This document shows, piece by piece, positions 7,582 through 61,725 of a stretch of DNA of 64,000 bases. The DNA lies in the NCBI GenBank assembly GCA_035548155.1, contig DASZUD010000231.1:5986-69985 (forward strand), read 5' to 3'. This DNA comes from Polyangia bacterium (GTDB lineage: Bacteria > Myxococcota_A > Polyangia > Fen-1088). A program made the translations under genes and the position numbers. Numbering within the stretch: position 1 is the first letter of the stretch; the number at the start of each line of letters is the position of its first letter. Below the pieces are notes generated by a model that had not been told where the DNA came from, ran no database searches, and saw only the letters and a list, made by a program, of their open reading frames with translations.

Positions 7582-8915
7582 TAAGCGAGGCCTTTCGGCG
7601 ACGCGGGCCCCTGAGAGGGCCCCGCGCCCCCGGCGCTCGCTCCGCGCGGCAGAGCCTCGCTGCGCTCGGATGGGTCTGCCAATCCCTTTGCTGCGAGGAG
7701 GTCGTCGTAGAGGCGCACGGTCTCCTCGAGGATGCGCTCGACGCTGAAGGTCTCCGCGACGTGGGCGCGGCCGCGCGCGCCCATGGCGCGGCGCTCGTCA
7801 GGCCCTGCCGCCACCATGCGGGCCAGCGCCTCGGCCAGCGCGTCGTGGTCGAAGGTGGGCGCCTCGAACCCGCTCACGCCGTCGACGACGATGCGATCGA
7901 TGTTCGCGGCGTGCGACACGACGGCGGGCAGCCCGCAGGCGTGCGCCTCCAGGACGGCGTTCGGCAGGCCTTCGTACAGCGACGGCATCACCAGCGCGTC
8001 GGCCGCGTGATAGAGCGACAGCATCTCGCTGACGGTGCCCAGGAACCGCACGGCCTCCGTCAGCCCCAGGAGCTCGAGCACGCGCGGCAGCACCGCCGAG
8101 TAGACGCGATCGCGGTTGCGCCCCGCCAGCATAACGCGCACGTTCGCGGGCAGCCGGCCCGCGCGCCGCAGCCGGGCCAGCGCCAGCGCCAGCCCGATCT
8201 GATGCTTCTGCACGCCGACGCGCCCGGGAAGCAGCAGCGCGATCTCATTGGCGCCCAACCCCCACTTCGCGCGCGCCGCGGCTCGCTCGTCGTTGGTCGG
8301 CGGCCGGAAGCGCTCGAGGTCGATGAAGTTGTGCAGGAGCTGCACCTTCTCGGGCGCGACGCCCGCCAGCTCCACCAGCTCGCGGCGCACGCCCTCCGAG
8401 TTGGCGATGATCCGGTCGCTCTTCTGCGAGAGCCACTGCTCGGTGAGCAGGTGGACGACGTGCATGGCGCGGCTACGCACAGCCGTGACGACGACGGGCA
8501 CGGCCGCCCGCCGCGTCGCGAGGCGCGCCCAGAAGTTCGCCTTGTCGCGGTACGAGTGCAGGATGTCGGGCTTCTCTTCGCGCAGCACCTCGACGAGCTT
8601 GCGCAGCCCGCGCGGCCCCATGCGCCGCTCGCCCAGCACGTGGCGCGGCTCGCCGTCCGGCAGGTACTCGCGGTAATGGACGACGTCCTCGTAGAGGCAC
8701 AGCGTCGGCTCGAAGCGCGCCGGGAGCCGCGTCATGAGCTCGAGGATCTGCCGCTCTGCCCCGCCCTGCTGCAGGTTCGGGATGAAAAGAAGAACCTTGT
8801 GCCTTTTCGACGGGGCCTGGCTCGCCGCCGCTCGCGAACCGATCGACACCGGGTCCCCCTCGCTTCGCGCGGCCAAGCCGCGCTGCGCTCGCCCTTGATC
8901 CACGGCGCCGTTCAT
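7581..8915 (-). CDS. Glycosyltransferase family 4.
   Basis: The E-x7-E motif YEGLPNAVLEAHACGLP is present, with a GT-B N-domain KVLLFIPNLQQGGAERQ. The true start may lie 30-40 codons downstream of the ORF start. Confidence 0.85.
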   Translation of the reverse strand: MNGAVDQGRAQRGLAARSEGDPVSIGSRAAASQAPSKRHKVLLFIPNLQQGGAERQILELMTRLPARFEPTLCLYEDVVHYREYLPDGEPRHVLGERRMGPRGLRKLVEVLREEKPDILHSYRDKANFWARLATRRAAVPVVVTAVRSRAMHVVHLLTEQWLSQKSDRIIANSEGVRRELVELAGVAPEKVQLLHNFIDLERFRPPTNDERAAARAKWGLGANEIALLLPGRVGVQKHQIGLALALARLRRAGRLPANVRVMLAGRNRDRVYSAVLPRVLELLGLTEAVRFLGTVSEMLSLYHAADALVMPSLYEGLPNAVLEAHACGLPAVVSHAANIDRIVVDGVSGFEAPTFDHDALAEALARMVAAGPDERRAMGARGRAHVAETFSVERILEETVRLYDDLLAAKGLADPSERSEALPRGASAGGAGPSQGPASPKGLA

Positions 8916-9659
8916 TTACCACACGCCTTCTCGGAGGGCCTCCTCGGCGCGCTGCCGCTCTTCGGGCAGGTCGACCTCCAACCACCCGTGCCCGCTGATG
9001 TCGCGGCACAGGGGGGGCCGGTCGGTCGTCGCCAGGCGCGCCAGCACGCGCTCGACGTGAATGGCCCGCCCCTCTTCCGCGAGCGCGGCCTCGGCCGTCG
9101 CCCAATAGCGCGCCGCGGCCCCGGCCGGCACCTTCGACATGCCGACGTAGCCCGCGTCCCAAGTCTCGAGCGTCTTCGCGATGCGCCGCACCCGCCCGGC
9201 CTCGTCGCGCTCGACCTTCATGTCGTCCGCGCCCAGCGTCCGATCCGTATCGATGAACGCCGTGACTTCGCTGGCCGGCCTCTCGACGATCCCCGCAATG
9301 GCCGGCCTGTAGATGTGGTCGATGTTCATGACGAGCAGCTCGTCGGCGAGGTCGATGCGCGGGCGCGCCGTCATGAGCGAGACCAGGTTGCCGTCGCGAA
9401 AAGCCTCGTTCCGAACCAGCGTCACGCCGAGCGCGCGCCTGGCGATCTCGGCCTCGACGAGCTCGTAGCCATACCCGCCGACGACGATCACGTCGCGCGC
9501 CCCCGCGCGCTTCGCGAACCGCACGGCGTACGCCAGCAGCGGCTCTGCCCCGACGGTGATGAGCGCCTTCGGGATGCGCTCCGTGAGCTGCCCGAGCCGG
9601 CTGCCGAGCCCGGCCGCCAGCAGCACCGCCTGCATTCCCCCGTTCTTTGTCGAGCTCAC
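8916..9659 (-). CDS. Sugar-phosphate nucleotidyltransferase (NTP_transferase family).
   Basis: The signature MQAVLLAAGLGSRLG matches G-x-G-x-R-L. Length is about 240 aa. It lies immediately upstream of the GT4 gene. Confidence 0.75.
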   Translation of the reverse strand: MSSTKNGGMQAVLLAAGLGSRLGQLTERIPKALITVGAEPLLAYAVRFAKRAGARDVIVVGGYGYELVEAEIARRALGVTLVRNEAFRDGNLVSLMTARPRIDLADELLVMNIDHIYRPAIAGIVERPASEVTAFIDTDRTLGADDMKVERDEAGRVRRIAKTLETWDAGYVGMSKVPAGAAARYWATAEAALAEEGRAIHVERVLARLATTDRPPLCRDISGHGWLEVDLPEERQRAEEALREGVW

Positions 9660-9763
9660 GCGATGTTCCTACGTCGATTGGTCGAAGGCCGCGAGCGTAG
9701 CGCGGCTATGCCGCGCAGAGCGAGGGGGCCAGGGGCACGCGAGCGGCAGCGAGCCGGACCCCG

Positions 9764-16821: not shown

Positions 16822-27360
<10,539 letters not shown>

Positions 27361-27852: not shown

Positions 27853-28767
27853 CTACGGCCCGGACAGGGCGTAGAGCTTGTCGTTCGCCGCCTTGACGTA
27901 GTTCCCGTCGGCGGCCTTCCCGCTGTTCGTGACGAACTTCTGCAGGTACTCGCGCGCCTTGTCCTTCTGGTCGTTGCCGTGGGCCTCGTCGTACCAGTCG
28001 GAGTAGGCCATGCCCGCGTTGTAGAGGGCGTCGAACAACTCGGGGTCGAGGTCGATGGCCTTCTTGAACTCGGCCGTCGCCTGCTCGTACTGCTTGAGGT
28101 TCTTGAGCGCGAGCCCGTAGCCGTTGTGGCACTCGCCGTCGTCTTCCTTGGCCGTCACGCAGCCCTGAAAGACCTGCGCCGCCTCCTTGTTGAAGTCGTA
28201 GTCGAGGTACAGGTACCCGAGGGCGACGTACGACTTCGAGAAGCGCGGGTTCGCCTCGATGGCGCTGCGGAGGGCGTCGTCCGCCTCCTTTGGGTGATCG
28301 AGGACCTTGCGCACGAGGCCGAGGCGCCACCACGCCTTGAACAGCTTCGCGTCGGCCGACGTGGCCGCCGCGAACGCCTTCTCGGCCTGGTCGAGCTTCT
28401 TCTGCTCGAAGTACGCCTCGCCGAGGTCGTACTGGTAGTTGGCGTTGTTGGGCGTGTGGGCCACGGCCTGCTCGAACGACTCGATGGCCTTGTCCCACTT
28501 GCGCTGCTTCTGGAAGACCTTCCCGAGGTTGTAGTACGCGATGTCGTACGTCGGATCGGTCTGGATCGCCTGCTTGAGGTCCTTCTCCGCCGAGTCGTAG
28601 AGGTTGTTCTTGAACTCGTCGGCGCCCTTGTTGGCGAGCTCGATGGCCTTGATGCGCTCCTGGCTGCAGGTGAAGCCTTCGCAGGCCGGGAGCACGAAGC
28701 CGATCGCCAGGACGATCGCCTGAGGGGTCAGCAGTCGACTGAACGTCTTCGACTTGGACATGGTCAC
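27853..28767 (-). CDS. TPR-repeat lipoprotein (AgmV/GltH-like).
   Basis: A lipobox LPAC follows a signal peptide. TPR repeats are present (YYNLGKVF, YQYDLGEAY). Its start overlaps the stop of the FHA gene by 4 nt. Confidence 0.8.
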   Translation of the reverse strand: MTMSKSKTFSRLLTPQAIVLAIGFVLPACEGFTCSQERIKAIELANKGADEFKNNLYDSAEKDLKQAIQTDPTYDIAYYNLGKVFQKQRKWDKAIESFEQAVAHTPNNANYQYDLGEAYFEQKKLDQAEKAFAAATSADAKLFKAWWRLGLVRKVLDHPKEADDALRSAIEANPRFSKSYVALGYLYLDYDFNKEAAQVFQGCVTAKEDDGECHNGYGLALKNLKQYEQATAEFKKAIDLDPELFDALYNAGMAYSDWYDEAHGNDQKDKAREYLQKFVTNSGKAADGNYVKAANDKLYALSGP

Positions 28768-30962
28768 TCTCCACCGCCCGCGGGCGTCAGGACGAACGGA
28801 TACGAGACGATGACGATACCGCCGCCGAGGGGCTTCGGGAACTCCCAGCGACGAACCGCCTGCACCGTGCAGTTCTCGACGCGGGCGTTGCCCATCGTCG
28901 AGTTCTGGAGGACCGAAGCGATGACCTGACCGGACGCCGCGATGGTGAACTGCACCATGATGCGGCCGCCGAGGTCGGGCTTCTTCGTGAGCTCCTGCTC
29001 ATAGCAGTACTTCACCTCGTTGATGTGGCGGCGGATGATGCGGCGGATGATCTCCTTGTCGAGCGAGCCGCGCACGGCCGCCTGACCCGGGATGACGTCC
29101 GGCGCCTTCGCGCGACGGCCGCCGAGGCCGCCGGCGCCGCGGCCGTAGCCGCTGCCGTTGCCGCCGCCGCCGCCCTTGCCGATCGTCCCCAGGTTGCCGA
29201 GGCCGATCGTGCCCTCGCCCGTACCGCCGCCGCCCGAGCCCGTGCCGACCAGGCCGAGACCGCCGACGCCGTAGGCCTCGCCGATCTGGTTGCCGATGAG
29301 GCCGCCCAAGACGTCCTCCGCGTCGTTGCCCAGGGCCGAATCCCGTCCAAAGATGGACGCGATGTGCGAGCCCTCGTTCATCTTGAGGACGCCGAGGATG
29401 CCGGCGTTCTTCGCCTGCTCCTCAGCGAGCTTCTTGGCGAGGTGCGGATCGGGGTTGTCCTTCGGACCCTTGAGGCCGTAGAGACCCTCCTTGTTCTTGG
29501 AGGTCTTCTTGCCCATCTTGCCTTCTTCGCCCTTGTGGCGCTTGCCCTTGCCGCCCTGCTCCTCGTTCTTCTTCGACTTGAGCCACTCGGGGATGTCCTC
29601 TTCCTTCTCCTCCGGCGGCTTGATGAGGAACTTCACGAAGCGGTTGTCGGAGTTGAAGAGGTCGAGCGAGAGCGACTTCGGGTCCGGCGGGACCGAGAAG
29701 ATCATGAGGAGGAACAGCAGCAGCGCGACGCTGGAGCCGACCGTGTAGATCTGCTCGTCCCACTTCCACGTGAGGAAGGGAACCTCGAGCGCGCGCGGGC
29801 GGTTCGTCGCCGAGACGAGGAACGTCGACTCGCCGCAGTCCAGCTTGGCGCGGGCGCCCTGGGGCAGCGAGAAGCTCGAGCCGCGCTGGGCGATGAACTG
29901 CTGCAGCGGGTAGAGCTGGTTGTCGACGTACACCTCGCCGGTCATGCGGGGGGTGACGTTGACCACGTAGTCGGCGCCCGTCGCCGCGACCAGCGGGTGC
30001 GAGGGCGAGGGCACGAACTCGGGCGACACCGGCGCGTCGACGCCCGAGTCGGAGCCGATGATGAAGTTCGGGCTGGTCTTGCCGCGGCGCTTGAGGCCCA
30101 TGTACGAGAGCGCGATGCCGGCGGCGAAGCCACCGAACACCAGAACGCCCGGAAGCGGCGAGCGCGTCTTCCACGTGAACGTCTTCGCCTCGTTGCCCGA
30201 CGCCGTCCACTGCTCATAGGCGGCCTTCTCGGCGCCGACGTCCATGGCCGTGGCGACGAACACGATGAGCGCGAGCGCGGCGGCGGCGATGCCGCCGTAC
30301 ATCATCGACGTGCCCTGGCCGTGCGTGCTCTTGCCCTCGGGGTTGAAGAGGTGGCGCGTGCCCGTGACGACGCCGCGGAAGACCGTCTGGACCTCCATGG
30401 CGCGCGAGCCGTCCATCACCTCGACGTCGGCGCTGCCGCCACCCATCGAGGCGCCGTAGCCGCCAGCACCGGGCGGGGGCGCGAAGCCGCCGCCAGCGGG
30501 CGCGGCCGCCGCGAAGGGCTGCGGAGCCGACGGCACGTAGCCGGGAGGCGGCGCGAAGCCACCGGGAGGCGGCGCGATGCCCAGGCTCGTCTTCTGGCCC
30601 ACACGAGGACCGGACGGAGGGGCGGCCGGCGGCGGCGTCAGCTGCGCGGCGGCGTCGAGGAACGTGACGCGCACGCGGCTGTCGCCGAACATGATCTCGT
30701 CGTTCGAGTTGAGCTTCGCCTTGCTGATGCGCTCGCCGTTGACCAGCGTGCCGCGCGTCGAGCCGAGGTCGATGATGTGGATCTCATCGGGCCCCGTGAC
30801 CTCGATGACGGCATGCATGCGCGACACCGTCTCGTCGTCGATCCGCAGGTGCGACGAGGCCAGCTTCCCGACCTTGATCACATCCTGAGCGAGGGTCTCT
30901 TCGCGAACGAGCGCGTCCCCCTTGTAGATCTCGAACTTGATGGGGACCTTCACGTCGGCCAT
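28764..30962 (-). CDS. FHA-domain protein with a TonB-C-like AgmX/PglI-type C-terminal domain (PglI/GltG-like).
   Basis: An N-terminal FHA domain is present (SRMHAVIEVTGPDEIHIIDLGSTRGTLVNGERI). A Pro-rich linker and one transmembrane segment follow. The C-terminus reads LDKEIIRRIIRRHINEVKYCYEQELTKKPDLGGRIMVQFTIAASGQV, typical of the myxobacterial AgmX/PglI C-terminal domain. Confidence 0.85.
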   Translation of the reverse strand: MADVKVPIKFEIYKGDALVREETLAQDVIKVGKLASSHLRIDDETVSRMHAVIEVTGPDEIHIIDLGSTRGTLVNGERISKAKLNSNDEIMFGDSRVRVTFLDAAAQLTPPPAAPPSGPRVGQKTSLGIAPPPGGFAPPPGYVPSAPQPFAAAAPAGGGFAPPPGAGGYGASMGGGSADVEVMDGSRAMEVQTVFRGVVTGTRHLFNPEGKSTHGQGTSMMYGGIAAAALALIVFVATAMDVGAEKAAYEQWTASGNEAKTFTWKTRSPLPGVLVFGGFAAGIALSYMGLKRRGKTSPNFIIGSDSGVDAPVSPEFVPSPSHPLVAATGADYVVNVTPRMTGEVYVDNQLYPLQQFIAQRGSSFSLPQGARAKLDCGESTFLVSATNRPRALEVPFLTWKWDEQIYTVGSSVALLLFLLMIFSVPPDPKSLSLDLFNSDNRFVKFLIKPPEEKEEDIPEWLKSKKNEEQGGKGKRHKGEEGKMGKKTSKNKEGLYGLKGPKDNPDPHLAKKLAEEQAKNAGILGVLKMNEGSHIASIFGRDSALGNDAEDVLGGLIGNQIGEAYGVGGLGLVGTGSGGGGTGEGTIGLGNLGTIGKGGGGGNGSGYGRGAGGLGGRRAKAPDVIPGQAAVRGSLDKEIIRRIIRRHINEVKYCYEQELTKKPDLGGRIMVQFTIAASGQVIASVLQNSTMGNARVENCTVQAVRRWEFPKPLGGGIVIVSYPFVLTPAGGGE

Positions 30963-47356: not shown

Positions 47357-48235
47357 TCAGAGCGTCGTCGCGCTCGGTGCGCAGCCCGGCGGCTGTTGCG
47401 CGCACGCGCAGCTGCGGCAGCCGTTCGGCCCCGTGCGGAAGCCGTATGGACAGGCCTTGCAGAGGATGTTCAGGCCTGCGCACGTGGCTGCGGACAGGCA
47501 CCCGCAGGTCTGGCAGCCGTTGGCGTCCAGCGCGTAACCCTCCGCGCAGCTGGTGGCGCACGACACGGCCGGGCAGCTCCCAGGCGTCGTGCCCGCGGGG
47601 CAGGTCGCGGGCGGCTTGCACGTGCACGTCGCGCAGCCGCCCTCGTCGGCGACGTCGCCGTTCGCGCACGTCGAGGGGTCGCAGCGCAGCGCCGGACACT
47701 TGCAGGTGGGCGGCTGCCACGCGCACTTGCCGTCCGTGTTCCGGGCGCAGCCGCCGCCGACGATCGTCCCCGTCGGACAGTACGGCGCCGCGAATGGCGG
47801 CGGTGGACCGCAATCGTCCGTCGTGCACGCTGGCGGCGGGTTGCACTCGCAAGTCGGGCAGCCGTTGGCATCCAGCACGTTGCCGTACTGGCAGAAGATG
47901 TCGCAGACCGGGCCGCACGCGCCCCCGGTGCCGCCCTTCCCGCCCGCTCCCTTCGTGCCGGCGGTCCCCGTCGTTCCCGCGCTGCCGGTCGTGCCGCCGC
48001 TGCCCGCCGCGCCGGTCGTGCCGCCGCTGCCCGCCACTCCCGTCGTGCCACCGCCGCCGGCAGACCCGCTCGTGCCACCGCTGCCCGCGGCACCCGTGCC
48101 GCCCGTCGTGCCGGCCGCTCCGCCGTCGTGGCCCGCGCGTCCCGACGCGCCGCCGTCCGGGCTCAACGTGACGGAGCCACAGCCCAGCAGAACGACGGCC
48201 AGCGCGAGCGCCAGGCGCGAGCGAAGCGCGATCAT
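47357..48235 (-). CDS. Cys-rich lipoprotein with a Gly/Thr-rich repeat linker (paralogue A).
   Basis: The start MIALRSRLALALAVVLLGCGS carries a lipobox. A ~110-aa (G/T/A/S)-rich linker follows. The ~160-aa C-terminal domain has 30 Cys with repeated NGC[PQR]TC.C motifs. An ATGA overlap joins it to the upstream paralogue. Confidence 0.65.
   Translation of the reverse strand: MIALRSRLALALAVVLLGCGSVTLSPDGGASGRAGHDGGAAGTTGGTGAAGSGGTSGSAGGGGTTGVAGSGGTTGAAGSGGTTGSAGTTGTAGTKGAGGKGGTGGACGPVCDIFCQYGNVLDANGCPTCECNPPPACTTDDCGPPPPFAAPYCPTGTIVGGGCARNTDGKCAWQPPTCKCPALRCDPSTCANGDVADEGGCATCTCKPPATCPAGTTPGSCPAVSCATSCAEGYALDANGCQTCGCLSAATCAGLNILCKACPYGFRTGPNGCRSCACAQQPPGCAPSATTL
47940..48135. repeat. Degenerate 18-nt periodic repeats inside paralogue A (Gly/Thr/Ala linker).
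   Basis: Imperfect iterations of c.gt.gtgcc.cc.ctgcc run through 47940-48135. Confidence 0.55.
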
Positions 48236-49062
48236 TGCGTGGCGACCGGTGTGCACGTGCACGTGGGGCAGCCAGTCGCCTCCGGCTGCGCGGCCGCCGC
48301 CGTCACGGGGCACGCGATGAGCGGACAAGCGAGCACCGGACACGGCACGCACGTCGGACCCTGCCAGACGCAGACGCCGTCCGTTCCGCGCTTGCACACG
48401 GCCGGATTCACCTGACCGCTCTTGCAGATAGGATAGGCGTAGTCGGGCTCGGGACCGCACTCGGACGGGGTGCACGCCCCGCCGGTTCCACCGGCGCCCG
48501 TCGTTCCACCGGCGCCCGTCGTCCCACCGGCGCCCGTCGTCCCACCGGCGCCCGTCGTTCCGCCGGCGCCCGTCGTTCCGCCCGCGCCGCCGGCGCCGCC
48601 CGCCCCGCCGGCGCCGCCCGTACCGCCCGTTCCCTTCGTGCCGGCAGCGCCCGTCCCGCCTTGGCCACCGCTGCCGCCAGCACCACCTGTCCCCGTCGTG
48701 CCACCGGTGCCCTTGGTCCCCGCGGTGCCGGTCGATCCGCCGGTGCCGGCGCCACCGGAAGACCCCGCGGCGCCCGTCGTGCCAGCGCCGCCTGCTGCGC
48801 CCGTTGATCCCGCGACGCCGCCGTCCGAGCCGCTGGCGCCCGAGACGTGCCCGCCGGTCCCCGCCGATCCGCTGGCGTTCGTGCCGCCGCTTCCACCGCC
48901 GCCGTCCGCCGTCACGCTGACCGAGCCGCAGCCCGCCACCGCGACGACGAGAGCGAACGTCAACGAAGCCAAAGAGAGGCGAAGCATCATGGGCGGCGCT
49001 CCTTCACGAGAGGCATGGGGAGAACCCTGCCATTCTGCATTCAGCGTGCCGCCACTGATCAA
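48232..49062 (-). CDS. Cys-rich lipoprotein with a Gly/Thr-rich repeat linker (paralogue B).
   Basis: A lipobox VAGCGS is present. The linker carries (TTGAGG)5 encoded by 18-nt DNA tandem repeats. A C-terminal Cys-rich domain with GCPTCTC follows. The track ORF starts with a TTG at 49062. An ATG alternative (MMLRLS) lies about 24 codons downstream. Confidence 0.65.
   Translation of the reverse strand: MISGGTLNAEWQGSPHASREGAPPMMLRLSLASLTFALVVAVAGCGSVSVTADGGGGSGGTNASGSAGTGGHVSGASGSDGGVAGSTGAAGGAGTTGAAGSSGGAGTGGSTGTAGTKGTGGTTGTGGAGGSGGQGGTGAAGTKGTGGTGGAGGAGGAGGAGGTTGAGGTTGAGGTTGAGGTTGAGGTTGAGGTGGACTPSECGPEPDYAYPICKSGQVNPAVCKRGTDGVCVWQGPTCVPCPVLACPLIACPVTAAAAQPEATGCPTCTCTPVATQ
48485..48580. repeat. 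Tandem 18-nt direct repeats, about 5 copies of accggcgcccgtcgttcc read on the plus strand, inside paralogue B. They encode the Thr-Thr-Gly-Ala-Gly-Gly repeats.
   Basis: The repeats are visible directly in the sequence at 48481-48580. Their period is 18 nt with few mismatches. Confidence 0.8.
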
Positions 49063-49206: not shown

Positions 49207-50565
49207 TCAGGAGGCGACGATCTCGGCGGCCAGATCGTACTCGGCCGAGTGCGTGACGCGCGCCGAGAGCAGCGTCCCCGGCGCGGGTGGCGCCGCGTCG
49301 CCGGCGCCCTCGGGGAACGACAGGTACACCTGACCGTCGATCTCGGGCGCCTGACCTTCGTGGCGGCCCATGAGCAGGTACTCGGACTCGTCGGACGCGC
49401 CCTCGACCAGGACCTCGATCGTCTTGCCGCGCATCGCGCGCAGCTTCTTCTTCGAGATCTCGCGCTGGATGCGGAGGAGCTCGCGGCGGCGCGCGTCCAC
49501 CTCCTTCTGCGGTACGCGTTTCGGCAGCAGGGCCGCCACGGTGCCTTCCTCGCGCGAGAAATTGAAAACGCCGACGCGATCGAGTTCGGCCTCACGCACG
49601 AAGTCGCACAGGCGCTGGAACGCCTCCTCGGTCTCGCCCGGGTGGCCGACGATGAACGTCGTCCGCAGCGTCACGCCCGGCACGCGGGCGCGCACGCGCT
49701 CGCACAGATCGCGCACCTGCTTTTCACCGTAGCCGCGACGCATCGCCTTGAGCACGTCGCTGTCGAGGTGCTGGATCGGCACGTCGAGGTACTTCGCGAC
49801 GCGCGCCTCGCCGGCCATCACGTCGAGCAGCTCGTTCGTGCACGCCGTCGGATACGCGTAGTGCAGACGGATCCAGCGCAGGCCCTCGACGCCGCCCAGC
49901 CCGCGCAGCAGCGAGGCCAAATTCGGCGCGCCGGGCTCCTTCGCGCCGGGAAGGTCCGTGCCGTACGTCGTGAGGTCCTGCGCGACGAGACAGATCTCCT
50001 TCGTGCCGGCCGTCGCGAGCGCGCGAGCCTCGCGCACGACCGACTCGGGATCGCGGCTGCGCTGCGGACCGCGCAGCTTGGGGATGATGCAGAACGCGCA
50101 CGGGCGATCGCAGCCTTCGGCGATCTTCACGTACGCCGTGTGCGTCGCCATCGACGGCTGTCGCGGCGCGATGTCGTCGTAGAGGTAGCGCGGCGTCTCG
50201 GCGACGCGCACGCGGCGCTCGGCCCCGCTGATCGCCTCGTTGATGGCGCCCACCTCGTCCGTGCCGAGGAATTCGTCCACCTCGGGCATCTCGTCGGCGA
50301 GCTCTTTCGGGTACCGCTGTGAGAGGCACCCGGTCACCACGAGGCGCTGGCACTTGCCGCCCTCCTTGTGGCGCGCCATCTCGAGGATGGCGTCGATCGA
50401 CTCTTGCTTGGCTTCGCCGATGAAGCCGCAGGTGTTCACCACGATCACCTCGGCGTCCTCGGCGGCTGCCACGATCGAGTGACCGGCGCCCGTGGCATGC
50501 CCGAGCATGACCTCGGTGTCGACGCGGTTTTTCGGGCAGCCGAGCGAAACGAAATGGACGTTCAT
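49207..50565 (-). CDS. rimO: Ribosomal protein S12 methylthiotransferase (MiaB-like radical-SAM family).
   Basis: The start is MNVHFVSLGCPKN. The radical-SAM motif CDRPCAFC and a C-terminal TRAM domain are present. Confidence 0.85.
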   Translation of the reverse strand: MNVHFVSLGCPKNRVDTEVMLGHATGAGHSIVAAAEDAEVIVVNTCGFIGEAKQESIDAILEMARHKEGGKCQRLVVTGCLSQRYPKELADEMPEVDEFLGTDEVGAINEAISGAERRVRVAETPRYLYDDIAPRQPSMATHTAYVKIAEGCDRPCAFCIIPKLRGPQRSRDPESVVREARALATAGTKEICLVAQDLTTYGTDLPGAKEPGAPNLASLLRGLGGVEGLRWIRLHYAYPTACTNELLDVMAGEARVAKYLDVPIQHLDSDVLKAMRRGYGEKQVRDLCERVRARVPGVTLRTTFIVGHPGETEEAFQRLCDFVREAELDRVGVFNFSREEGTVAALLPKRVPQKEVDARRRELLRIQREISKKKLRAMRGKTIEVLVEGASDESEYLLMGRHEGQAPEIDGQVYLSFPEGAGDAAPPAPGTLLSARVTHSAEYDLAAEIVAS

Positions 50566-50671
50566 TTGATGAAGGGGCGGCAGCTTAGCAGATGCGCCCG
50601 CGGCGAACGAACGGGCGCTCGGGGCCCCGCGAACACCAGCCGGCACGCCGCGTTACGGGCCTGAACGCTCC

Positions 50672-51736
50672 TCAGGGGAACGCGAACACGTCGCGCTCGC
50701 CGAACTGCTTGACCAGCACCGTGACGTACTGCCGGACGACGTCGCGGCGCGCGACGACGGCGCGGATCTCGGCGGGCGTGAGGATCTCGTAGGGCGTCCC
50801 GGTCTCCTCGGACAGCACGCGCTCGAGCGTCGGCACGCTGATGCGGTCGAGCGCCTGGTAGGTCCCTCGCGAGAACCGCTGCGTCCGCATGAGCGCGTCG
50901 CGAGCCTTCGTTTTGCCCGTGGGCTCGACGTAGAAGGACATCGTGTTGTCCATGTAGTAGAGCTGCTTGCCGTCGGGCGACATCTTCATGTTGCCGCCCG
51001 AGAGGCGGTCCGGGTTGTCCGTGAGGAAGTCGAACACGACCAGGTCCGAGAGCTGGGCGGCCATGTCGCGCTTGTCGGCGGGAATGGCCTGGCCCAAGGA
51101 CAGCCAGGTCTGCGCGAGGCGCTGCCCCTCGGGCGTGTCGAACCCGGAGTCCTTGATGACGGGGATCCAGTAGGAAGCCGTGCCGACGGTCTTGCCGCCG
51201 GGGCCGAAGATCGTCTCGGCCTCGATGCGCGGGATCAGCGGGACGCTCTCGGGGTGAAGGTGGCTCAGCAGCTCGTCGTGCGCGACGACGCGCGGCGCGG
51301 CCGGGGGCACGGCGTTGAGCCCCAGCAGACGGTTCAGCCGGTACGCCGCCACCTCCTTGCGCGGGATCGTCTGCAGGTTCGTCTGGTTCGGCTTCCAGGC
51401 CGCGCGCGAGCCGTCGGCGAACTCGATGCGGAACGACAGCGACGACCCGCCGTGGTTCACCTTGAACCGCACGATGGGCAGCGTGCGCACGCGCTGGAGC
51501 AGGAGCTCGTCGGACATGCCCAGGAACGTGCCGGCCGCCTCGAGCGCGATCACGGGATCGGGCAGCGCCGACAGATCCTTGCGCGCGGACAGCGGCGCGG
51601 GCCCTTGGGCCTCGCGCGCGCGCGCCGCCAGCACCGCGCGCGCGCCGTGCGAAAGGCGCATGATCCCCCAGCCGCCGCTGCCCAGCACCGCTGCGGCGAT
51701 CGTCAGCTCGGCGAAGATGAGCCCCGGGAGACGCAC
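50672..51736 (-). CDS. Membrane-anchored protein with a Fam20/four-jointed-like atypical kinase motif.
   Basis: An N-terminal transmembrane helix is present. The motif VVFDFLTDNPDRLSGGN resembles the FDFL..N.DRH catalytic segment of the Fam20/FJX1 secretory-kinase family. Confidence 0.55.
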   Translation of the reverse strand: MRLPGLIFAELTIAAAVLGSGGWGIMRLSHGARAVLAARAREAQGPAPLSARKDLSALPDPVIALEAAGTFLGMSDELLLQRVRTLPIVRFKVNHGGSSLSFRIEFADGSRAAWKPNQTNLQTIPRKEVAAYRLNRLLGLNAVPPAAPRVVAHDELLSHLHPESVPLIPRIEAETIFGPGGKTVGTASYWIPVIKDSGFDTPEGQRLAQTWLSLGQAIPADKRDMAAQLSDLVVFDFLTDNPDRLSGGNMKMSPDGKQLYYMDNTMSFYVEPTGKTKARDALMRTQRFSRGTYQALDRISVPTLERVLSEETGTPYEILTPAEIRAVVARRDVVRQYVTVLVKQFGERDVFAFP

Positions 51737-51833: not shown

Positions 51834-52037
51834 ATGTCGACGTCTCCCGCGTTCGTCTGCTCCATGTGCAGAAAGCCCATCGCCGTCGGGGCCAAGGTCA
51901 TCAAGTGTTCGGTCAGCACGTGCAACTCCGGCCGCGTGAAGCTGGTCTTCTGCTCGGCCTCCTGCTGGGACAGCCACCTGCCCAATGCCCGCCATCGCAG
52001 CGCCTACTTCGTCGAAGAGATCGCTCGCCGCGAATGA
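51834..52037 (+). CDS. Zn-ribbon miniprotein (67 aa).
   Basis: The protein MSTSPAFVCSMCRKPIAVGAKVIKCSVSTCNSGRVKLVFCSASCWDSH has two Cys pairs (CxxC...CxxC). It forms the tail of track ORF 51315..52037. Confidence 0.4.
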   Translation: MSTSPAFVCSMCRKPIAVGAKVIKCSVSTCNSGRVKLVFCSASCWDSHLPNARHRSAYFVEEIARRE

Positions 52038-53132
52038 CTAGGGAGACGCCGCGACGGCGTCCTCGAGCGCGTTCGCGATCGTGCCCTTGCGCGTGAAGCC
52101 CACGAAGGTTCCACGTACGGCGCCGTCCTTGCCGATGATGATCATGGTGGGCAGCGAGCGGACCTTGTAGAGGCCGTTGATCTCGCCCTCGTCGATGCCG
52201 ACGGGGTACGGGACGTCGTGCTCGCGCAGGAAGGCGCGCAGGGCCTCGGGCTCGATGCCGCCGTCGGAGTTGATGCCCAGGAACGTCACGCCCCGACCGC
52301 TCCATTCGGCGTGAAGCTCGTGCAGCGTGGGCAGCATCGCCAGGCACGGCGGGCACCACGTGGCCCAGAAATCGAGCACGACCACCTGCCCGCGCAGCGC
52401 CGCGAGCGAGATCTCCCCCGGCTGACCGTCGGCGCGAGCGAGCGTGAACCGCGGCGCCGCCTGGCCGCTGCGCACGGGCAGGAGCGCGCGCAGGTGCCGC
52501 GCCGACCACACGAGGTTGCCGGCCAGCGCCACGGCGGCGACGCCCGCGACGGCGAGGCCCGCGAGGCGCGCGCGGCGGCCCGGCGAGACGATCACCGGCG
52601 CCGGGAACGTGCCGGTGCGCCGGCGCGCCACGATGATCGCGCACACGAACGCCGGCAGCGTCACGGCGATCGCGCCGGCGCGCGCGCCCCAGACCGGCCA
52701 CGGGCGCGCGCCCGTGAGCTCCTCGACGACGCGGAACGCGCTGGTCGCGGCGAACCAGGGCGCGTAGCAGGCGGCGCCGAGCTCGAGGTCGCGCGACGAG
52801 TCGCGGCGCGCACCCGCGAGCAGCGTGATCGCGACGGAAGCCGGCAGCACGACCCAGGCCGCGGCGACGATCTCGTTCGCCGCGACGGAGACGACGCGCA
52901 AGAGCGCGTCCATGCTGGGCGCCGACAGCCCCAGCAGCGCCTCGAACAGCAGCGGAAAGCGGAACGTCACCGTCGCCAGCGCGACCAGCCAGATCGCGTC
53001 GTGGAGCCCGCCGCCCTGACGATCGATGCGCTCGAGCGCCGCGCGCGGCGCCAGCAGGATCTGCCCCACGCGCCCCAGCAGCCCGCGCAGCGGCTGGCGG
53101 GGCGGGGCGGCGGTGGCGGTCTCGTCGGCCAT
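52038..53132 (-). CDS. Membrane-anchored TlpA/ResA-like thiol:disulfide oxidoreductase.
   Basis: The start is chosen at MADETATAAPP. About 220 aa form a polytopic membrane domain. The periplasmic thioredoxin fold carries WATWCPPC. The R-rich 5' extension of the track ORF is rejected. Confidence 0.75.
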   Translation of the reverse strand: MADETATAAPPRQPLRGLLGRVGQILLAPRAALERIDRQGGGLHDAIWLVALATVTFRFPLLFEALLGLSAPSMDALLRVVSVAANEIVAAAWVVLPASVAITLLAGARRDSSRDLELGAACYAPWFAATSAFRVVEELTGARPWPVWGARAGAIAVTLPAFVCAIIVARRRTGTFPAPVIVSPGRRARLAGLAVAGVAAVALAGNLVWSARHLRALLPVRSGQAAPRFTLARADGQPGEISLAALRGQVVVLDFWATWCPPCLAMLPTLHELHAEWSGRGVTFLGINSDGGIEPEALRAFLREHDVPYPVGIDEGEINGLYKVRSLPTMIIIGKDGAVRGTFVGFTRKGTIANALEDAVAASP

Positions 53133-60084: not shown

Positions 60085-61725
60085 TTGAGTACGAGCGGAA
60101 CAGGCGGTCGCGACGCCCTGCTCGCCGACGCCGTCGCCCAGCATGAGGCGGAGGTCGCGGCGGCCGAGGCGCAGCCTTCGGAGCCGATGGGCGCGCCCGA
60201 AACGCCGCGCATCCTCGTCGTCGACGACGAGAAGGTCATTCGCGAGATCCTCGCGGACTTCCTCAACATGGAAGGCTACGTCGTCCACACGGTCGAGGAC
60301 GGCGTCGAGGCCCTGAAGGAGCTGCACCGCCGCAGCTACAACCTGGTCATCTCGGACCTGAAGATGCCCAACATGGGCGGCCTCGAGCTGATCCAGAAGA
60401 TCACCGAGGAGAGCCTGCCCGTGCTGACCGTCATCATGACGGGCTTCGGCACCGTCGAGACGGCGATCGAGGCGATGAAGCGCGGCGCCTACGACTACAT
60501 CCTCAAGCCGTTCAAGGTCGAGGAGGTCATGCACATCGTGCAGCGGGGGCTGGACCGCCAGCGCCTGCAGCACGAGAACATCCGCCTCAAGGACGCGCTG
60601 TCGATCTACAAGATCAGCGAGGCGATCGCGACGTCGCTCAACGTCGACACCGTGCTCGATCTCGTGCTCGACGCCACCATCGACACCGTCGACGCCGACG
60701 TCGTCAGCCTGCTGCTCGAGGATCCGCACCACGAGGGCCGCTTCACCGAGCGCATGCGCAAGGTCTCGCAGCGCCACGAGCCGTCGATCGAGGCACCCGC
60801 GCTGAACCTGGAAGAGGTGATCCCGCTCTTCAAGGACGACCGTCCCCTGCTGGTGCACGGCAGCCGATCGTACCGCTTCCTCGCGTCGCCGCCCGATCTC
60901 GAGCGCCGGCTCGTCTCGTTCTGCAGCATCCCGCTGAAGCTGAAGAGCCGCATCATCGGCATGCTGAACGCGTACAGCTACACGCGCGGCAACAAGTTCT
61001 CCGAGGGCCAGCGCAAGATGCTGTACGTGCTGGCCAGCCGCGCGGCCTTCTCGATCGAGAACGCGCGTCTGTACGAGAACCTCGTCGACGCGAACAAGGA
61101 TCTCACCCTCGCGAACATCTCGCTCGAGGAGAACTTCAAGCAGACGATCATCGGCTTCGCCCACGCGCTGGAAGAGTCGGACCGCTACACGCGCGGCCAC
61201 TCGGAGCGCGTGGCGACCTACGCGCGCCTCATCGCCATTGGCCTCAAGATGACCCAGGGCGACATCGATACGGTCGTCAAGGTGGGCCTGATGCACGACG
61301 TCGGCAAGATCGGCATCCGCAACGACAAGCTCAACAAGCCGGGCAAGCTGACGCCCGAAGAGCTGGCCATGTTCCGGTCGCACCCCGCGAAGGGCAAGCG
61401 CATCCTCGAGCCCATCCCGTTCATGCGCGACATCGTGCCGGGCTGTTATTGCCACCACGAGGCGTGGGACGGCTCGGGCTACCCGCAGGGCCTCATGGGC
61501 GACCACATCCCGCTCATCGGCCGCATCGTCGCCATCGCCGACGCCTACGACGCCATGACGAGCGACCGCGCCTACCGCAAGGCGCTGCCGCACGACATCG
61601 CCTGCGGCGAGATCGAGCGCTGCATCGGCGCGCAGTTCGACCCCGAGATCGTCCCCGTGTTCCTGGCGCAGATCGAGGAGTACCGGCGGCTCGAGGCCAG
61701 CGCCGGCCACCTGATCCCGCGCTGA
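60085..61725 (+). CDS. Response regulator with REC, GAF and HD-GYP domains (predicted c-di-GMP phosphodiesterase).
   Basis: The receiver domain carries ILVVDDE, a phospho-acceptor in LVISDLKMP and a conserved Lys in ILKPF. A GAF-like middle region follows. The HD-GYP segments are GLMHDVGK and HHEAWDGSGYP. Confidence 0.85.
   Translation: MSTSGTGGRDALLADAVAQHEAEVAAAEAQPSEPMGAPETPRILVVDDEKVIREILADFLNMEGYVVHTVEDGVEALKELHRRSYNLVISDLKMPNMGGLELIQKITEESLPVLTVIMTGFGTVETAIEAMKRGAYDYILKPFKVEEVMHIVQRGLDRQRLQHENIRLKDALSIYKISEAIATSLNVDTVLDLVLDATIDTVDADVVSLLLEDPHHEGRFTERMRKVSQRHEPSIEAPALNLEEVIPLFKDDRPLLVHGSRSYRFLASPPDLERRLVSFCSIPLKLKSRIIGMLNAYSYTRGNKFSEGQRKMLYVLASRAAFSIENARLYENLVDANKDLTLANISLEENFKQTIIGFAHALEESDRYTRGHSERVATYARLIAIGLKMTQGDIDTVVKVGLMHDVGKIGIRNDKLNKPGKLTPEELAMFRSHPAKGKRILEPIPFMRDIVPGCYCHHEAWDGSGYPQGLMGDHIPLIGRIVAIADAYDAMTSDRAYRKALPHDIACGEIERCIGAQFDPEIVPVFLAQIEEYRRLEASAGHLIPR

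Follow-up and report, generated by a model that had tools for sequence, protein, structure and literature searches.

A putative Fam20-like atypical kinase anchored in the membrane of a Polyangia bacterium and its family in Myxococcota

The gene at positions 50672-51736 (minus strand) of a 64,000-nucleotide stretch of contig DASZUD010000231.1 from a Polyangia bacterium (assembly GCA_035548155.1; the whole stretch is called the window here) encodes a protein of 354 amino acids. In the reading that we consider reasonably probable, it is a single-pass membrane-anchored protein whose C-terminal 285 residues form a putatively active atypical kinase domain homologous to Fam20A/B/C, and it belongs to an exported Myxococcota family. 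Attention had been drawn to it by an earlier reading of the DNA (the original prediction), in which a motif resembling the Fam20/four-jointed type of secretory-pathway kinases was noticed behind an N-terminal transmembrane helix.

The open reading frame (ORF) is real and has exactly the predicted coordinates; it lies on the minus strand, starts with GTG and encodes 354 aa. Its GC content is 0.96 at third codon positions (GC3) and 0.47 at second positions (GC2), which is the signature expected of coding DNA in a genome of 70% GC, and the ratio of nonsynonymous to synonymous substitution rates (dN/dS) against seven close orthologues is 0.21-0.37; together with the synteny of the locus, these values rule out a spurious ORF. 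The motif that had been quoted, LSDLVVFDFLTDNPDRLSGGNMKM, is present at aa 229-252 (nt 50981-51052), as is the transmembrane helix, LPGLIFAELTIAAAVLGSGGWGI, at aa 3-25. The features of the gene and its protein are the following:

50672..51736, minus strand: gene of the Fam20-like protein, 354 aa, with a GTG start and the stop codon at 50672-50674
51662..51730, minus strand: N-terminal transmembrane anchor LPGLIFAELTIAAAVLGSGGWGI, aa 3-25, from hydropathy, with a helix at aa 3-19 in the AlphaFold2 (AF2) model
51707-51709, minus strand: E10, a conserved Glu inside the transmembrane helix, invariant in the close clade (alignment A1) and present in at least 90% of the mid-diversity set (alignment A3)
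51530..51661, minus strand: linker, aa 26-69, with an Arg-rich amphipathic helix (aa 24-43) and then a low-confidence Pro/Ala-rich tether (AF2 pLDDT 57-73)
50675..51529, minus strand: Fam20-like atypical kinase domain, aa 70-354, with N-lobe, C-lobe and Fam20-type C-terminal helices
51440..51457, minus strand: Gly-rich loop NHGGSS, aa 94-99, which contains the conserved G96 and corresponds in the alignment to SGGTQL of Fam20C (5yh3_C)
51392..51394, minus strand: K115, putative ATP-binding beta3 Lys in an FKP motif also found in Fam20C, aligned with Fam20C LFKP
51353..51355, minus strand: E128, putative canonical alphaC Glu, aligned with the Glu of Fam20C NAE, which corresponds to ceFam20 E218 (roles from PMC5865150)
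50990..51034, minus strand: catalytic loop FDFLTDNPDRLSGGN, aa 235-249, with D236, N241, D243 (putative catalytic base), R244 and N249
50948..50950, minus strand: D263 in YMDNTMSF, putative metal-binding Asp (DFG equivalent), aligned with Fam20C HLDNGRGF

Homology to Fam20 and extent of the family

Taken alone, the window protein gives borderline evidence of kinship with Fam20. It matches the Pfam family Fam20C (PF06702) with an E-value of 7.9e-4 and 19.6 bits, below the gathering cut-off of 26.8, and a single-sequence search of the PDB returned weak matches to no chains other than those of Fam20C, Fam20B and Fam20A, split over two regions; among the NCBIfam models it matched only TIGR03843 (SCO1664 family), at 29.7 bits against a cut-off of 172.4. 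The case was settled by a profile of homologues. Alignment A2 is composed of 100 full-length diverse representatives that are 24-56% identical to the window protein, and its profile, searched against all PDB sequences, reached human Fam20C at E 2.3e-25, zebrafish Fam20C at 1.4e-22, Fam20A at 2e-20, C. elegans Fam20 at 1e-15 and Hydra Fam20 at 1e-13, with no non-Fam20 chain significant, so that the resemblance to Fam20 that had been predicted from the motif was borne out. The next match after Fam20 was PI4K-II alpha (PI4K2A) with E 0.1. The matches of the profile take in both lobes: the N-lobe at profile positions 80-166, and the C-lobe together with the C-terminal helices at 218-355. When the members of A2 were scanned one by one in Pfam, 49 of the 100 matched Fam20C at E<=0.01 (best 3.9e-11), while HipA_2 was matched by 30, FAM198 by five and the PI3_PI4_kinase domain (PF00454) by one (E 0.0013). 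Some family members already carry a precomputed automatic PF06702 tag, and 23 of 36 exported relatives match TIGR03843 (best E 3.5e-9), all of them far under the 172.4-bit cut-off.

The structure was modelled with AF2 on A2, since a narrow alignment had given a pLDDT of 68; the A2-based model has a pTM of 0.83 and a pLDDT of 91.1, which exceeds 95 over most of the domain (aa 70-354). A comparison with Fam20 and CotH structures had been proposed with the original prediction, and in a Foldseek search of the PDB with this model the first 28 matches were all Fam20 chains (E 4e-14 to 7e-10) and PI4K-II came next. The fold ranking after Fam20 consists of PI4K-II alpha (16.2), Helicobacter pylori CtkA (14.3), actin-fragmin kinase (13.5), CotH (11.6) and HipA (11.5). 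The kinase-like fold of the model is nearest to the solved Fam20 structures, the C-terminal helical extension included, and the window protein is much closer to Fam20 than CotH is. CotH, the spore-coat kinase of Bacillus, is likewise a bacterial atypical kinase and is distantly related to Fam20C (PMC7821199). It acts on proteins of an extracytoplasmic layer; the window protein was not found to belong to the CotH family, CotH (11.6) not being its best fold match. A chance likeness of the motif to Fam20 is ruled out by the profile and fold evidence, and recent transfer or contamination from an animal is ruled out by an identity of ~20%, host-like GC3 and synteny in 82 loci.

The family is large. 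A word-indexed search returned 803 relatives, of which the best 120 are 64-96% identical, all labelled 'hypothetical protein', the named ones coming from Polyangia metagenome-assembled genomes (MAGs). An exhaustive HMMER search, run over 1.84 billion cluster representatives, yielded 1091 clusters (clustered at 50% identity) at E<=1e-3 and 216 at E<=1e-30, and a pattern scan of one genome per species, which used the mid-diversity alignment A3 and covers the window-type subfamily only, found relatives in 228 genomes, the best 80 of the 228 all being Myxococcota MAGs. The named hits of all subgroups are from Polyangia (Polyangia bacterium, Haliangium, Sandaracinaceae and Polyangiaceae); no other phylum was found among the named family members, most sequences carrying no name. 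The earlier description of the bacterial homologues as rare is contradicted by the 1091 clusters and 228 species genomes; every copy is annotated as hypothetical. No NCBIfam model exists for the family. Fam20 has been reviewed as animal-restricted, its ancestral form being a glycan kinase of the Fam20B-like type (PMC7948968), and has been termed 'Metazoa-specific' (PMC9758233). Our full-text literature search found nothing that joins Fam20 to myxobacteria or describes a bacterial Fam20-like family, a passing mention of bacterial PF06702 members still being possible. As far as the literature was searched, this is a large, unnamed, Myxococcota-specific family that databases tag in part and that nobody has described.

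Active site in comparison with animal Fam20

Across A2, W190, D236, R244 and R330 are invariant (100%), D263 is kept in 99% of the homologues, N241 and D243 in 98%, N249 in 96% and G96 in 94%; position 115 is Lys in 84% and Arg in 14%, and position 128 is Glu in 97% and Asp in 3%. The putative catalytic Asp and the metal- and ATP-binding residues (K115, E128, D243, N249 and D263), whose conservation was to be checked after the original prediction, are kept at 84-99%. Such a canonical Lys/Glu/Asp/Asn/Asp set, retained across 24-56% identity, is the pattern of an active phosphotransferase, and from it we infer an active enzyme that would use the canonical Lys-Glu pair K115-E128. In HMMER alignments, D243 pairs with the Asp of NMDRHH of Fam20C and D263 with the Asp of HLDNGRGF, partners that we take to be D458 and D478 of human Fam20C, and the spacing of 20 residues between D243 and D263 is the same in Fam20C.

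In the animal enzymes, Hydra Fam20 D299 is the catalytic base and ceFam20 E218 is the canonical alphaC Glu; catalysis further requires that an acidic residue of the Kβ3-Kα3 loop form a pair with the Lys (E306 in human Fam20C, E213 in ceFam20, D152 in Hydra), and Fam20A is a pseudokinase partly owing to a Gln at the E306 position (PMC5865150). In the alignment of the bacterial family, no conserved acidic position was found in the K115-E128 loop, which is 12 residues long in 96 of the 100 members, and the loop of the window protein, PNQTNLQTIPRK, contains no acidic residue. The Kβ3-Kα3 loop of Fam20A/B/C is ~13 residues longer than that of the bacterial family and holds the essential Glu together with the dimer-interface 'Clash1' motif. 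Four conserved disulfides are characteristic of Fam20A/B/C, whereas the window protein has no Cys among its 354 residues and 51 of the 100 family domains are Cys-free. The catalytic loop reads D-R-[LYF]-S-G-G-N in the bacterial family, with a conserved Asn that is likewise found in ordinary, lipid and HipA kinases, whereas Fam20 has D-R-H-H-Y-E; neither the sugar-pocket residues of the Fam20B Kβ3-Kα3 region nor the His of D-R-H was found in the aligned bacterial sequences. Fam20A/B/C are metazoan Golgi kinases ('casein kinase' type) of the secretory pathway, whose activity prefers Mn2+ and is directed at S-x-E proteins (Fam20C) or at the xylose of Gal-Xyl (Fam20B), whereas the window protein is bacterial (Myxococcota), ~100 residues smaller and 17-21% identical to them. 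Judged by these residues, it appears to be a pared-down Fam20 fold free of disulfides, outside the animal family in its strict sense.

Orientation, activity and rival explanations

An extracytoplasmic kinase had been proposed from the topology of the window protein. At the level of the family, the location outside the cytoplasm is upheld: the family is exported, as seen from the Sec signal peptides, the lipoboxes and a transporter fusion with an extra transmembrane helix in its distant members, while the flanking charges of the window protein itself are ambiguous. The distant subgroup (~30-40% identical; Sandaracinaceae, Polyangiaceae and other Myxococcota MAGs) has Sec-type signal peptides in 61 proteins, ending in ...A-S-A|Q-P (A-x-A) directly before the domain, and lipoboxes (e.g., L-L-A-C-G) in a further 19, and most of its other members are gene calls that start within the signal peptide. 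P0259 (759 aa) consists of a transporter of the major facilitator superfamily (MFS), an Arg-rich loop after the last MFS helix, one extra transmembrane helix and then the Fam20-like domain, so the extra helix places the domain opposite the transporter's cytoplasmic C-terminus. At the Haliangium locus L001, an MFS gene (8455-9693) lies two genes downstream of a family member, and the fusion and this neighbour hint at a transported co-substrate.

In the window protein, nothing but 'MR' stands ahead of the transmembrane helix, and behind it the net charge of aa 26-45 is +3, with four Arg. Among homologues that share the anchor motif, the stretch behind the helix is frequently acidic or neutral and leads into long Pro/Ala-rich tethers (P0125, P0136, P0147 and P0164), and the linker (aa 26-69) varies in length and sequence across homologues. 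The anchor motif R-L-x-x-x-[ILV]-x-x-E-L, which contains E10, occurs in 175 of 484 collected homologues, E10 being conserved out to the Haliangiales; this is more conservation than a passive anchor needs and suggests an intramembrane partner or interaction. Three anchoring modes are predicted across the family, namely, a transmembrane helix with a conserved Glu (the clade of the window), a lipobox, or a cleavable Sec signal peptide that would leave the protein released. An extracytoplasmic orientation of the window protein is considered likely.

In the proposed mechanism, the domain would face the periplasm, tethered to the inner membrane. Its Gly-rich loop (aa 94-99) would join with K115 and E128 in holding the nucleotide (ATP), and N249 with D263 in binding Mn2+ or Mg2+. 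D243 would then deprotonate a hydroxyl of the envelope substrate for phosphoryl transfer. The leading candidate for this substrate, named tentatively, is an envelope or secreted protein; a glycan comes next as a rather doubtful candidate, and a lipid or another compound takes the remainder.

Several points weigh against an exported, active Fam20-type kinase. The window protein by itself stays under the Pfam gathering cut-off for PF06702 (19.6 vs 26.8 bits), the bacterial family appears to have no conserved counterpart of Fam20C E306, Arg replaces Lys at position 115 in 14% of homologues, and the positive-inside rule would slightly favour a cytoplasmic domain for the window protein. The main difficulty is that the periplasm is generally held to be without ATP (PMC7595990), and an exported kinase would have no obvious phosphate donor there. 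The same fold and chemistry could be arranged N-out/C-in in the clade with the transmembrane anchor, with the N-tail of two residues passed across the membrane and the kinase domain cytoplasmic and tethered to the inner membrane, where ATP is at hand, as it is said not to be in the periplasm. The short 'MR' before the helix, the charge of +3 with four Arg in aa 26-45 and the close-clade consensus ...GVRHLRAxLAAR after the helix agree with such an arrangement; we regard it as unlikely, given that a compartment switch of a homologous domain is rare within one family, that in more distant homologues the domain comes directly after an unambiguous cleavable signal peptide or a lipobox, that the MFS fusion puts the domain opposite the transporter C-terminus, and that homologues with the same anchor are often acidic or neutral after the helix, with Pro/Ala-rich tethers behind it.

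It is also possible, at a low probability, that the domain binds a nucleotide and is no classical kinase, being either a pseudokinase or scaffold like Fam20A or an enzyme whose nucleotide-dependent reaction is a different one, such as AMPylation (SelO) or glutamylation (SidJ); that a kinase fold can host other chemistries is well documented (PMC10870513). The absent counterpart of E306, the position whose loss makes Fam20A a pseudokinase, the Arg at position 115 in 14% of members and an ATP-poor compartment, which argues against high-turnover phosphorylation, would all fit this, whereas the Lys, alphaC Glu, catalytic Asp, loop Asn and DFG-like Asp are kept at 84-99% and E128 can form the ion pair, as the canonical Glu of ordinary kinases does. 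It is improbable that the protein is a lipid or small-molecule kinase similar to type II PI4K, with the head group of a membrane lipid and not a protein or glycan as its substrate: PI4K-II follows Fam20 in both searches, but the family profile reaches it at E 0.1 only and PF00454 was matched by one of the 100 relatives; the type II PI4-kinases (PI4K2A/B) are moreover eukaryotic, cytosolic and attached by palmitoylation, whereas the window protein has no Cys and many family members are soluble and exported. The HipA_2 family (PF20613) and the SCO1664 family (TIGR03843), with weak profile matches in 30 of the 100 relatives and at 28-30 bits, respectively, share one branch of the kinase-like superfamily with the window protein. 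A HipA-like toxin kinase of a toxin-antitoxin module is effectively refuted by context and fold ranking, as the gene belongs to the syntenic core in 82 loci and has no HipB- or HipS-like neighbour, the family is exported, and HipA lies much further away in structure than Fam20 does.

In animals, most of the secreted phosphoproteome is the work of Fam20 kinases, which also control proteoglycan synthesis; the bacterial family offers a prokaryotic outgroup for reconstructing the origin of secretory-pathway kinases, with a disulfide-free, minimal Fam20 fold that could be expressed in bacteria. It also makes testable the assumption that no ATP-dependent phosphorylation takes place in the Gram-negative periplasm, and it draws attention to an envelope modification, so far unstudied, in bacteria that are social and build a matrix. 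The widest form of the hypothesis, that Polyangia carry a large and ancient family of periplasmic or secreted Fam20-type kinases acting on envelope or matrix components, and that this prokaryotic family is sister to the secretory-pathway kinases of animals or even gave rise to them, is put forward as speculative and, as a whole, rather unlikely. If periplasmic Fam20-type kinases do exist here, these bacteria would have to supply a nucleotide phosphate donor to a compartment held to be ATP-free, possibly through an associated transporter, such as the MFS protein that is fused to one member and lies near another; if the enzyme faces the cytoplasm or is inactive, the finding shrinks to a new branch of the kinase-like superfamily.

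Genomic neighbourhood

The genes next to that of the kinase-like protein are the following:

52038..53132, minus strand: upstream neighbour with an ATG start at 53132, encoding an N-terminal multi-pass membrane domain of ~220 aa and a TlpA/CcmG-like thioredoxin domain (WCPPC; Pfam AhpC-TSA, Redoxin and Thioredoxin_8)
51834-52037, plus strand: ORF of 67 aa, Cys-rich (CxxC-x11-C-x4-C-x10-C-x3-CWDSH), between the TlpA-like gene and the kinase gene and divergent from the latter
49207..50646, minus strand: downstream neighbour, a rimO-like radical-SAM methylthiotransferase gene (Pfam UPF0004, Radical_SAM and TRAM), 25 nt after the kinase stop codon

The ~220-aa multi-pass membrane domain of the upstream protein has no Pfam match. 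Its gene starts 8 nt after coaX. Among 82 loci of the window type, the TlpA/CcmG-like gene stands upstream on the same strand in 74, coaX is found in 69, rimO lies downstream in 52, DUF2254 is present in 52 and nadA in 46; the adjacency of the TlpA-like and kinase genes also occurs in Haliangium, at 46% identity. A scan found no consensus promoter or terminator on either side of the kinase gene, so the operon structure rests on gap sizes. The rimO gene is probably co-transcribed with the kinase gene and probably functionally unrelated to it; a functional link between the kinase and RimO is unsupported, rimO being absent from 30 of the 82 loci, where nadA or other genes replace it.

The 67-aa Cys-rich ORF occurs in 44-45 of the 82 loci with 83-95% identity and a dN/dS of 0.06-0.13, and is more conserved than its neighbours. 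In Pfam, it gave weak matches only (zf-FCS, E 0.018; zf-MYND, E 0.046), and it resembles a small protein, as yet unnamed, that binds zinc or another metal.

The seven loci of the exported subgroup have a block of another composition: Rsm22 (on the opposite strand), CcmC (PF01578), an ORF of ~100 aa, sometimes an acyl-CoA dehydrogenase, the kinase, an ORF of ~115 aa and a HATPase_c protein of ~222 aa. The CcmC-like gene (PF01578, ~235 aa) is present in six of the seven, ~1-2.5 kb upstream of the kinase (L083-L087 and L089). The space between the two holds tiny ORFs, one or two in number (~100 aa and 41 aa), in six of the seven loci, and the ~115-aa ORF followed by the ~222-aa HATPase_c/HisKA-like protein stands after the kinase in five of the seven; the tiny ORFs, the ~115-aa ORF and the HATPase_c protein are possible partners or substrates. 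Each of the two subfamilies thus has a different gene of the cytochrome c maturation type beside it, TlpA/CcmG-like in one and CcmC in the other. This synteny may reflect a shared periplasmic function or merely an inherited gene order, and a functional link between the kinase family and the cytochrome c maturation-type genes is regarded as doubtful.

A response regulator-GAF-HD (HD_5) gene is found at 60085-61725 (plus strand) in the window and at 267-1847 in the Haliangium locus L001, only a few genes from coaX in both; the whole block is therefore deeply syntenic across Polyangia. Elsewhere in the window, 48232-49062 (minus strand) encodes a predicted lipoprotein of 276 aa with long Gly/Thr/Ala-rich low-complexity repeats (GTGGAGG..., TTGAGG x5) and a Cys-rich C-terminus, which has no Pfam match and is poorly conserved (four of the 82 loci). 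A run of TPR-repeat genes occupies 16822-38672 (minus strand) and includes a giant TPR protein of 3512 aa (16822-27360) and another of 1275 aa, with an FHA-domain protein that has a YscD-like domain (28764-30962) inside the run. The GC content of this run is 0.63-0.67, lower than elsewhere in the window.

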